Origin: an uncultured Spirochaetales bacterium
Lineage (GTDB): Bacteria; Spirochaetota; Spirochaetia; CAZWAS01
Length of the DNA stretch: 48,646 bases
Direction of reading: 5' to 3'
Assembly: GCA_964631915.1 (NCBI GenBank)
Contig: CAZWAS010000008.1
Location: 6,854-55,499 of the forward strand
The notes under the pieces were generated by a model that saw only the letters and a list, made by a program, of their open reading frames with translations, made no database searches and had not been told where the DNA came from. The translations under genes and the position numbers were made by a program. Positions 13,909-15,321 of the stretch are shown here, one piece after another; position 1 is the first letter of the stretch; each line of letters starts with the position of its first letter.

Positions 13909-14211
13909 TCAGCTGCAACACCCAGAACTCGATGAACCAGAACATCCACAGTCGGGCGTTGTGCCGCGGATTATGCCGTTTATAACTGCAGCCGCACATC
14001 CGACCCCGCTTCCGACTTCGATTGCGCCAGCAGGACAGTTTTTTTTGCACGCTCCGCATTCCATGCACGCGTCCCTGTCAATTATCACCGCTTTCCTGCC
14101 GTCCAATTCGAACACGCCGTGGGGACACACATCTATGCACATGCCGCATCCGGTACACGTTTCCGCGTCCAGCGTAAGGGATACCGTATTTTTCAAATAT
14201 CTCAGTTTCAT
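13909..14211 (-). CDS. hgcB: HgcB, 2x[4Fe-4S] ferredoxin of the mercury methylation pair
   Basis: 100 aa. CTGCGMCIDVCP and CMECGACKKNCP, an extra Cys in GVGCAAAV, and a Cys-rich tail ending SGCCS. A GGAGG Shine-Dalgarno sits in the 12-nt spacer after hgcA. Confidence 0.85.
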   Translation of the reverse strand: MKLRYLKNTVSLTLDAETCTGCGMCIDVCPHGVFELDGRKAVIIDRDACMECGACKKNCPAGAIEVGSGVGCAAAVINGIIRGTTPDCGCSGSSSSGCCS

Positions 14212-14223
14212 GATACCTCCGAA

Positions 14224-15321
14224 TTATGCGGTTTTAACGGCGCCACTTATGAGGAGAACATGGAGTGCAAGGCCGAAAATCGCCGATCCTATGAGAAAAG
14301 GCAAGGACATCCTGATTTCCTTTTTTTTTTCTGTGTGGGACGTGAATGTGGTAGCGCCGGTGAAGTTCAGCGCTATGAAAGCAGAAATCGGCGTGAGCAA
14401 CAACACGTTCGCAACGATCGGTACCCAAGAACGGGAATATGCGAAGCTGATACCCGCGGCCCACATGCATCCGAGCACAACCCCTTTCAGGGCGAAAGCC
14501 CTCCCGGGAATAAACGGAAGAAGCAGCGGAATCCCTACACACCCGACAAGTACGGCTCCGAGGAGCGGCACCATATCGAGGAATATCCGCACATCCACCG
14601 TACCCCGGAGAATCAGTCTAAAGAACACGAGAAACACTGCCGCTAGTGCGAAATATTTCATGCAGCTCACCAATTCCACAGGGATGAGCACCACCCTGTC
14701 TTTGAACGTAAATGGCACTTCCCGCATCTCCTTCGTGGTTTTCATGTTGTTGTTCAGAAACTTCGCAATATCTTTCGCGAGCACCGGGCCGTAAACAACT
14801 CTGAAGCCGGTCGCTTTTGCAACATCGTGAGCACTCACTCCTACTGCTCCGAGCTGGGGAACGATGAGCGTCCTGTGGCTCACGATATCCATCAGCCCTA
14901 CGGATCGGATTTTGCGTACCAATTCTTCCGTGCCGAAGGTGCCTTTTCCCGCAGCGCACCAGACATTTATTCCCTTCGTATCGAGAACCAGAATCCATGC
15001 ATCTATGCCCATGAGCCCTTTTCTAAGCGAATCGAAGCTCAGTTTGTAATTTGCAGTCACGAATACCGGCGCGGTTTTATCCGGGTTTCCCGTACAGTAT
15101 AGCCCCGGTTCCACGGAATATCGCATTCTCCCTATGGACCAGCGCACTTTCCATGCTGAGAAAATGTCCGTTCCGTTTAGGGCTGTCTTGACCCTCGGAA
15201 CATTTCCCGACTGCATTGCAACAAACCCTGCAAACCAGGGCTTATCCGTAACATATTCCTCGCGTATCCGCTCCGGCTTTGTCTGGCCCGAACAGCAGGA
15301 TTGCATTTTCACGAAATTCAT
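14224..15321 (-). CDS. hgcA: HgcA, corrinoid methyltransferase of the mercury methylation pair
   Basis: Cap-helix signature LDTKGINVWCAAGKGTFGTEELV, flanking SVEPGLY...ANYKLSFD...IVPQLGA, and a C-terminal block of hydrophobic helices. ATG 15321 is preferred because it forms an ATGA overlap with the MarR stop. Confidence 0.9.
   Translation of the reverse strand: MNFVKMQSCCSGQTKPERIREEYVTDKPWFAGFVAMQSGNVPRVKTALNGTDIFSAWKVRWSIGRMRYSVEPGLYCTGNPDKTAPVFVTANYKLSFDSLRKGLMGIDAWILVLDTKGINVWCAAGKGTFGTEELVRKIRSVGLMDIVSHRTLIVPQLGAVGVSAHDVAKATGFRVVYGPVLAKDIAKFLNNNMKTTKEMREVPFTFKDRVVLIPVELVSCMKYFALAAVFLVFFRLILRGTVDVRIFLDMVPLLGAVLVGCVGIPLLLPFIPGRAFALKGVVLGCMWAAGISFAYSRSWVPIVANVLLLTPISAFIALNFTGATTFTSHTEKKKEIRMSLPFLIGSAIFGLALHVLLISGAVKTA

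Follow-up and report, generated by a model that had tools for sequence, protein, structure and literature searches.

A MarR_ars-like regulator gene leads a predicted mercury-methylation operon in an uncultured spirochaete

No genetic determinant of methylmercury formation other than the hgcA-hgcB gene pair is known to us, and Parks et al. reportedly described it as the determinant of Hg(II) methylation in 2013. The reduced state of the cofactor in this chemistry is Co(I), and the extra cysteines of HgcB probably handle Hg(II). One such pair lies in a 48,646-nucleotide stretch of spirochaetal DNA, here called the window, and raises two questions: whether the genes encode a true methylation system, and what decides when they are expressed. 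The analysis points with high probability to a marR-hgcA-hgcB operon on a Spirochaetota chromosome, one that probably runs on into a ClC transporter gene and that a MarR-type protein would repress until a metal(loid) releases it.

HgcA binds cobalamin through thiolate ligation by a cysteine of its cap helix. It is methylated by S-adenosylmethionine (SAM) to the methylcob(III)alamin form, from which the methyl group is passed to Hg(II), and the two [4Fe-4S] clusters of HgcB feed in the electrons that regenerate the reduced cofactor (Zheng et al., 2024; PMC11588087). Three cysteines of HgcB, Cys73, Cys94, and Cys95, matter for activity (PMC11588087). In the literature consulted, transcriptional control of hgcAB 'remains unknown' save for one ArsR-type case, and a regulator of the ArsR2 type is described as encoded ahead of hgcAB (Goni-Urriza et al., 2020; Gionfriddo et al., 2023; bioRxiv 10.1101/2022.10.17.512643).

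The core of the locus in the window, in the direction of transcription, consists of the following features.

15318-15830, minus strand: marR_ars-like regulator gene, 170 amino acids from the ATG at 15830 (Pfam MarR, 55 bits).
14224-15321, minus strand: hgcA, 365 amino acids, a corrinoid-dependent membrane methyltransferase (NF040863, 421 bits).
14212-14223, minus strand: hgcA-hgcB spacer TTCGGAGGTATC, 12 nucleotides read directly from the sequence, containing a Shine-Dalgarno sequence.
13909-14211, minus strand: hgcB, 100 amino acids, a 2x[4Fe-4S] ferredoxin (NF040864, 124.3 bits).

HgcA and HgcB are full-length and unfused, and they carry every sequence signature of a mercury-methylation pair. 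The hgcA product starts with MNFVKMQ and contains LDTKGINVWCAAGKGTFGTEELV, with the cap helix NVWCAAGK at residues 119-126 and its cysteine at position 122. The gene ends in TAA, after which the spacer leads directly to the ATG of hgcB. In HgcB, CTGCGMCIDVCP and CMECGACKKNCP provide two CX2CX2CX3CP motifs starting at residues 19 and 49, and extra cysteines follow at Cys72 (in GVGCAA) and at Cys98-Cys99 in the C-terminal SGCCS. An in-frame alternative ATG for hgcA exists at 15354; the NCBI gene call (P0001, 365 amino acids) and the overlap with marR described below favour the start at 15321.

Profile hidden Markov models give the same assignment. HgcA (421 bits, E 2.9e-126) exceeds the cutoff of the NCBIfam model HgcA_corrinoid (275 bits) by 146 bits, and HgcB (124.3 bits, E 1.3e-36) lies above that of HgcB_ferredoxin (99 bits). 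The model for fused HgcAB-like paralogs reaches 195.8 bits on HgcA, below its cutoff of 285, and the gamma-subunit model of the corrinoid iron-sulfur protein (CFeSP) reaches 78.9 bits, far below its cutoff of 306. Pfam recognizes only the CdhD corrinoid domain of HgcA (53 bits) and the Fer4 domains of HgcB. A PDB sequence search with HgcA returned only CFeSP large subunits, aligned over residues 68-190 (2h9a, E 3.8e-12), and no experimentally solved HgcA was found in that database. The AlphaFold model of HgcA (predicted local distance difference test, pLDDT, 86.2; predicted template modelling score 0.82) consists of a Rossmann-like alpha/beta domain and then five long helices (residues 206-239, 245-270, 276-295, 299-323, and 329-359), with which the hydropathy profile concurs. 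Foldseek places a published computational HgcAB model (9a0b_A, E 3.7e-20, 40% identity) first among its matches and CFeSP next. Residues N119-K126 and 50 further positions do not vary across an alignment with 39 homologs, and the window protein has all of them.

All the sequence features that the first-pass annotation, made from the letters and their open reading frames (ORFs), had described in the two genes stand as written: the cap-helix signature in ORF 14224-15321, which lies on the minus strand; the corrinoid-like N-terminal half ahead of hydrophobic helices; the Shine-Dalgarno spacer; and the two-motif ferredoxin with its SGCCS tail. Its interpretation of the pair as a mercury-methylation system is likewise supported, at the level of prediction, by the family models, the invariant cap helix, and the fold match.

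The pair resembles that of Pseudodesulfovibrio mercurii ND132 and the entries of the Hg-MATE resource. In both cases hgcB comes right after hgcA, the cap helix reads NVWCAAGK with its Co-ligating cysteine, a CFeSP-like corrinoid domain precedes five transmembrane helices, and the family models score above curated cutoffs. The two CX2CX2CX3CP motifs of HgcB, the equivalent of Cys73 (Cys72 in the window), and the C-terminal cysteine pair are also common to both. The differences lie in the host, here an uncultured spirochaete, in the sequence of HgcA, which is about 40% identical to the modelled ND132-type protein, and in the gene context: the upstream regulator belongs to the MarR rather than the ArsR family, and a ClC transporter gene follows hgcB.

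HgcA is nonetheless distant from its known relatives. Among 5.8 billion proteins, the nearest full-length homologs are only 50-54% identical, and the sole relatives above 54% are the database entry of the protein itself and an incomplete hgcA from a contig of 1.2 kb. Together with the CdhD/CFeSP corrinoid domain that HgcA shares, this distance could be taken to mean that the genes are non-methylating paralogs, either of the CFeSP/CdhD type or related to the HgcAB-like fusions, or else decaying pseudogenes. Such an origin is very improbable. The HgcA model score stands well clear of its cutoff and the fusion and CFeSP models fail, so that neither of the contrary outcomes named in the first-pass annotation, an HgcA score under the cutoff or a grouping with paralogs, was seen; both ORFs are intact and retain all residues invariant across the 40 homologs; and the genes are separate, with hgcB directly downstream, as it is in 80 of 80 hgcAB loci drawn from GTDB. 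The promoter, marR, and the 5' part of hgcA also recur at 83% nucleotide identity in an independent metagenome (L085). Homology between the two begins at the promoter (15884) and the gene upstream differs; therefore the conserved unit appears to be the promoter-marR-hgcA module rather than its neighbourhood.

A side feature of HgcA is its N-terminal tail, which carries a vicinal cysteine pair (SCCSG, residues 9-10; window 15295-15321) outside the region matched by the family model. Cysteine-rich tails of this kind (CC, CxC, or CxxC) occur in 107 of the 120 closest HgcA homologs. By analogy with the C-terminal cysteine pair of HgcB, the tail may serve as a metal-handling arm.

The taxonomy of the host was based on homologs of leucyl-tRNA synthetase, encoded in the window by leuS (3789-6206, minus strand). 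Its best matches come from metagenome-assembled genomes (MAGs) named Spirochaetes, Spirochaetales, Spirochaetia, or Spirochaetaceae, and because these Spirochaetota sequences are 74-77% identical to the window protein, the host is placed in that phylum as an uncultured spirochaete. At 90% clustering, HgcA, HgcB, and LeuS each stand alone in their cluster. In a neighbour-joining tree, HgcA joins two Spirochaetota sequences (L061 and L001), the next clade out is mostly Spirochaetota as well (L009, L027, L025, L029, L026, and L023), and the best match among the 80 GTDB loci is from a Spirochaetes MAG (49%). Since its tree neighbours are mostly Spirochaetota, hgcA appears congruent with its host, with no obvious recent transfer. 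As far as one survey and the titles of other papers go, Spirochaetes have been recognized as putative methylators since 2015-2020 (PMC7438021). Where the first-pass annotation suggested a possibly under-studied lineage, the lineage is indeed uncultured, but its phylum is already listed with hgcAB (PMC7438021) and not new as a carrier of these genes.

What, then, would control the pair? The first-pass annotation had it sitting among housekeeping genes, a description that overlooked the gene immediately upstream: hgcA and hgcB form the core of an apparent operon led by a MarR-type regulator. The TGA stop codon of marR overlaps the ATG of hgcA in the sequence ATGA (15321-15318), an arrangement that predicts translational coupling of the two genes. 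The NCBI gene call gives an identical 170-residue MarR protein (P0242). A TTG at 15845 was considered as an earlier start and rejected, because its position coincides with the predicted transcription start or precedes it and because the 170-residue form is the one in the NCBI gene call.

The family assignment of the regulator is clear. Its AlphaFold model (pLDDT 86) has a MarR fold, all of its Foldseek matches are MarR-family proteins, and 41 MarR sequences in the PDB match it, 3S2W best. The strongest Pfam models are MarR, MarR_2, and HTH_27, with no match to HTH_5/ArsR (PF01022) at E up to 0.01. The protein is distinguished by a cysteine signature comprising Cys35-Cys36, Cys43-His44, and a C-terminal Cys160-Cys161. 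Among the 120 closest homologs, Cys35 is kept in 119, Cys36 in 106, Cys43 in 118, His44 in 119, and the C-terminal pair in about 83. In an alignment of 40 sequences, which takes in relatives linked to ars operons (P0322, P0351, and P0358), Cys35, Cys43, and His44 are invariant and Cys36 is present in at least 90%. The subfamily is small: a search of 1.84 billion representatives at E up to 1e-30 gives 383 clusters.

A comparable signature defines the MarR_ars subfamily (Yu et al., 2021; bioRxiv 10.1101/2021.08.12.456183). Its characterized member, the Achromobacter sp. As-55 protein AdMarR_ars, represses its own promoter together with arsV, is released by As(III) as well as Sb(III), and depends on Cys36, Cys37, and Cys157; relatives sit upstream of arsV, arsN, and arsP (10.1101/2021.08.12.456183). 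That paper makes no mention of hgcAB, mercury, or an operator sequence. The window protein shares the MarR fold, has Cys35/36 in place of 36/37 and 160/161 in place of 157, and is encoded by the first gene of the unit that it presumably controls; 3S2W was the template used by Yu et al., and relatives of the window protein occur upstream of arsN, arsP, and arsM. It differs in an extra invariant pair, Cys43-His44, and in the genes that it presumably controls, which are hgcAB and not ars genes. Because the window gene precedes hgcAB, while relatives at 38-41% identity precede ArsN2, an ArsP-family permease, and ArsM, the regulator is best called MarR_ars-like, a putative sister group dedicated to hgcAB. 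The window marR does not belong to an ars operon, and no ars gene lies near it in the window.

Gene order across other genomes supports this placement. In the comparison set of 80 hgcAB loci from GTDB (L001-L080), a MarR homolog stands directly upstream of hgcA on the same strand in about 27, scoring at least 70 bits in 21 of them. An ArsR-like gene takes the same position in 29 of the 80, and the two are never found together. About 70% of these loci are thus preceded by one of two unrelated families of cysteine-rich metalloregulators. A reverse search, in which metagenomes were scanned with the MarR alignment, yielded a further 80 loci with the closest relatives of the regulator (40-51% identity), of which 75 have room downstream of the MarR gene. 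The next gene is hgcA in 67 of the 75 (mostly with hgcB), an ArsM-type methyltransferase in six, and something else in two.

The six ArsM-type arsenite methyltransferases score 194-300 bits against verified ArsM. They follow MarR relatives with 41-45% identity to the window protein (L129, L132, L140, L144, L148, and L151) and carry SCCG..SCC and C-terminal SCCGxxCC motifs. Because such close relatives precede an ArsM-type enzyme, one regulator clade appears to be paired with two different metal(loid)-methylating systems.

A check of eight homologs on assembled contigs put four of them ahead of hgcA and three in arsenic operons; the remaining one stands before a small SAM-dependent methyltransferase. 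Those that precede hgcA include genes from Wallbacteria, from Candidatus Contubernalis, and from an 84%-identical relative. The neighbours of the arsenic-linked genes were assigned by NCBIfam as an ArsM (340 bits, cutoff 263) fused to ArsN2 and an ArsN2 (155 bits, cutoff 125); a gene resembling ArsN1a falls short of its cutoff, and ArsR, ArsD, and ArsA are adjacent. Relatives at 38-41% identity precede ArsN2, an ArsP-family permease, or ArsM. On Bacillus/Priestia plasmids, relatives precede a permease beside an annotated ArsR-family regulator and an 'RCCLKC-tail radical SAM' protein, which in NCBIfam is the name given to ArsL, the arsinothricin radical-SAM enzyme. Taken over all these loci, the closest members of the cysteine-rich MarR subfamily nearly always precede hgcAB, and more distant ones are found in arsenic operons.

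The locus of Candidatus Contubernalis (L081; CP054699.1, 1603288-1610758) departs from this pattern in one respect. Where a full hgcA would be expected after its MarR homolog, there are two short ORFs, the first of 257 amino acids with a match to CdhD and the second of 198 amino acids with no Pfam match, and an rve-family transposase lies just downstream. This arrangement suggests that hgcA was disrupted or truncated there by an insertion sequence.

Upstream of marR in the window lie a near-consensus promoter and two palindromes.

15848-15876, minus strand: sigma-70-type promoter, TTGACA-17 nucleotides-TACAAT, 11 of 12 consensus matches.
15849-15861, strand not assigned: operator candidate 2, 13-bp palindrome TTGTGAAATACAA (minus-strand reading), overlapping the -10 box.
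15833-15845, strand not assigned: operator candidate 1, TTGTATAATACAA, a perfect 6-1-6 palindrome that lies after the -10 box and before the marR start codon.

The -35 box and its flanking sequence are kept in the 83%-identical metagenomic locus. The palindromes stand 16 bp apart, with equal spacing in three GTDB loci (L010, L054, and L059). No site in the window other than these two matches TTGYRWNWYRCAA, and chance alone would yield 0.13 matches. The strict TTGYRWNWYRCAA pattern is found 15 times in the 2.46 kb upstream of MarR genes, compared with 20 times in the full 1,028 kb of the 80 GTDB loci. Sequences identical or nearly identical to TTGTATAATACAA precede MarR genes linked to hgcAB in Bacillota (L073), in Wallbacteria (L082), and elsewhere, and related sites are found at arsenic loci: TTGCATTATGCAA upstream of a MarR gene linked to arsP and arsM (L086), and TTGCATATTGCAA upstream of one linked to arsN2 (L087). 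The candidate operator therefore appears common to the hgcAB-linked and ars-linked members of the subfamily. A terminator search inside the operon gave nothing convincing.

These elements suggest how the operon could work. A MarR dimer would occupy both candidate operators and so block its own promoter and, with it, hgcAB. Binding of a thiophilic metal(loid) at Cys35/Cys36 and a C-terminal cysteine, possibly also at Cys43 and His44, would release the protein. By analogy with AdMarR_ars the ligand could be As(III) or Sb(III), possibly also an organoarsenical or Hg(II). After release, marR, hgcA, hgcB, and probably the ClC gene would be transcribed.

The choice of ligand bears on an alternative in which Hg(II) or thiol oxidation, and not arsenic, is what the regulator detects, so that hgcAB would be induced by its substrate or placed under redox control. 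A vicinal cysteine pair and a distal cysteine can form a tri-thiolate site of the kind that Hg(II) prefers, as in MerR; the invariant Cys43-His44 pair lies outside the published MarR_ars triad and might alter specificity; and the hgcAB-linked clade is distinct from the ars-linked members at 38-41% identity. Yet the operator and the cysteines at 35, 36, and the C terminus are common to relatives linked to arsM, arsN, and arsP, and the only characterized member responds to As(III) and Sb(III). To our knowledge, hgcAB transcription has also been reported as not induced by Hg, which weighs against sensing of this kind. Control by Hg(II) or redox state is judged unlikely.

A further alternative concerns the enzymes themselves. 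HgcAB could be genuine and mercury methylation still a side activity, with a physiological role that, as the MarR_ars-type regulator would indicate, is tied to As/Sb metalloid stress or metabolism. A parallel has been proposed for the ArsR-controlled hgcAB of ND132, and the literature ties hgcAB to ArsR and ars genes, in both cases as far as the available portions of the sources extend. The closest relatives of the regulator precede hgcAB or arsM and more distant ones arsN and arsP, and the ArsR-like and MarR_ars-like genes between them occupy the upstream position at 29 and about 27 of the 80 loci, never both. Against a metalloid role, no ars structural gene lies near hgcAB in the window, and several soft metals are bound by cysteine-rich sensors of this kind, so that Hg(II) itself could be the linked metal. 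Such a role is possible, and somewhat less improbable than sensing of Hg(II), but the balance is against it.

A broader proposal, held tentatively and at a little under even chances, joins these observations to the operon reading. In the window and in about one third of related loci (from Spirochaetota, Bacillota, Desulfobacterota, Aminicenantes, Wallbacteria, and others), hgcAB would form a self-contained module of promoter, double TTGYRWNWYRCAA operator, marR_ars-like gene, hgcA, and hgcB. The repressor would be a sister of MarR_ars that shares its operator with the regulators of arsM, arsN, and arsP, and most hgcAB loci, once those with ArsR-type genes are included, would be wired to arsenic-type thiol sensors. 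If this is true, the native role of HgcAB would be metalloid-responsive, and there would be a handle on when methylmercury production is switched on.

Several points weigh against the operon reading or its extension. The source of marR-hgcA-hgcB is a MAG contig, and we know of no spirochaete in which mercury methylation has been demonstrated. The cap helix of HgcA (residues 119-127) is modelled at low confidence, as expected for a model lacking the cofactor, and the C-terminal tail of the regulator with Cys160/161 is also of low confidence (pLDDT below 50 at residues 162-169). The MarR_ars assignment draws on cysteine positions and on ars-linked intermediates at 38-41% identity, not on an alignment with AdMarR_ars. 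The strict operator pattern is found in only 11 of 20 GTDB and 35 of 78 metagenomic upstream regions, though degenerate forms can be seen in others.

Regulators in this position have been noticed before. McDaniel et al. (2020; PMC7438021) listed 112 genomes with an unnamed 'putative transcriptional regulator' upstream of hgcAB, and Zhang et al. (2023; PMC10349881) give a single sentence to a MarR gene that precedes hgcA in two isolates, Dethiobacter alkaliphilus and Geobacter daltonii. Both resemble the present gene in standing right upstream of hgcAB and in their spread across phyla, and by position and description they are plausibly the same MarR family. The first report has no family assignment and the second only a COG label; a cysteine signature, an operator, and a link to MarR_ars are absent from both. 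The ArsR2 regulator of ND132 is likewise encoded by a cysteine-rich metalloregulator gene directly upstream of hgcAB and, in the parts of the source available, is reported to control hgcAB transcription. It belongs to an unrelated family, however: the window protein lacks any HTH_5/ArsR match, and the two types exclude each other upstream of hgcA in the 80 loci. A search of the available literature found no paper tying an hgcAB-linked regulator to MarR_ars, its cysteine signature, or its operator; the link suggested here is plausible and only partly anticipated.

One more spirochaetal hgcAB pair adds little by itself, as thousands are already catalogued. The value of the locus lies in a clean exemplar of a second class of hgcAB regulator, predicted to be coupled to hgcA and equipped with a cysteine signature and a conserved candidate operator. 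This regulatory module is under-described, and the hypothesis that As(III), Sb(III), or Hg(II) derepresses hgcAB through a MarR_ars-like repressor could be tested cheaply. If true, it would allow hgcA gene and transcript counts to be better read as predictors of methylmercury at sites co-contaminated with arsenic, and it would bear on the debated native function of HgcAB.

The genes on either side of the operon include the following.

12052-13896, minus strand: ClC-family channel/antiporter with two CBS domains (Pfam Voltage_CLC, 246 bits, plus CBS).
11190-12038, minus strand: ORF of 282 amino acids, 13 nucleotides after the ClC gene, no Pfam or NCBIfam match.
9864-11393, plus strand: radical-SAM protein of 509 amino acids, whose best match, below the cutoff, is a cobalamin-dependent PhpK-type P-methyltransferase (72 bits).
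17275-17937, minus strand: ORF of 220 amino acids, no Pfam match.
40271-41632, minus strand: ORF of 453 amino acids, no Pfam match.
42815-43573, plus strand: MerR-family regulator of 252 amino acids (MerR helix-turn-helix, 53 bits).

The ClC gene starts 12 nucleotides past the hgcB stop codon, behind a GGAGG sequence, and no terminator-like site was seen between the two; the gene is probably transcribed together with hgcAB. The idea that it is a conserved partner of hgcAB was rejected, since it is absent from all 80 comparison loci, and because it is not conserved there its adjacency is probably specific to the host lineage. The 282-amino-acid ORF behind it overlaps the 3' end of the radical-SAM ORF and may not be a real gene. 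The radical-SAM protein is putatively a second B12-dependent methyl-transfer enzyme, 2.5 kb from hgcAB. Also upstream of the operon in the window are genes for a CNNM/CorC protein and peptidases, along with this B12/radical-SAM enzyme and leuS.

Divergent from the marR promoter, on the plus strand, lie genes for an Isf-like flavin mononucleotide reductase (FMN_red, 16132-16779) and a GNAT protein (16859-17293). Both were considered as arsenic genes and rejected: the first has no match to the ArsH model, and the second reaches only 28 bits with ArsN1a and 26 bits with ArsN2. The flavoprotein contains a CX2CX2CX6C insert, which we take to be reminiscent of iron-sulfur flavoproteins. The flanks further encode RibF, a sugar-binding regulator, an alcohol dehydrogenase, an aldolase, and a MATE transporter. 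Searches of the window for tRNAs and for Rfam families, cobalamin riboswitches among them, returned nothing.

The absence of a mobile element next to the pair, remarked on in the first-pass annotation, is borne out as far as the window is annotated, with no transposase or integrase seen and a VapBC-like pair about 9 kb away. This pair, whose overlapping genes (24375-24584 and 24581-24967) look from their sequence alone like an antitoxin and a PIN toxin, falls in a stretch of low GC content (23400-26100, 0.43-0.46) that also holds a TetR-like gene (23454-24200) and about 1 kb with no convincing ORF (25.0-26.0 kb). The stretch may be a small acquired island.

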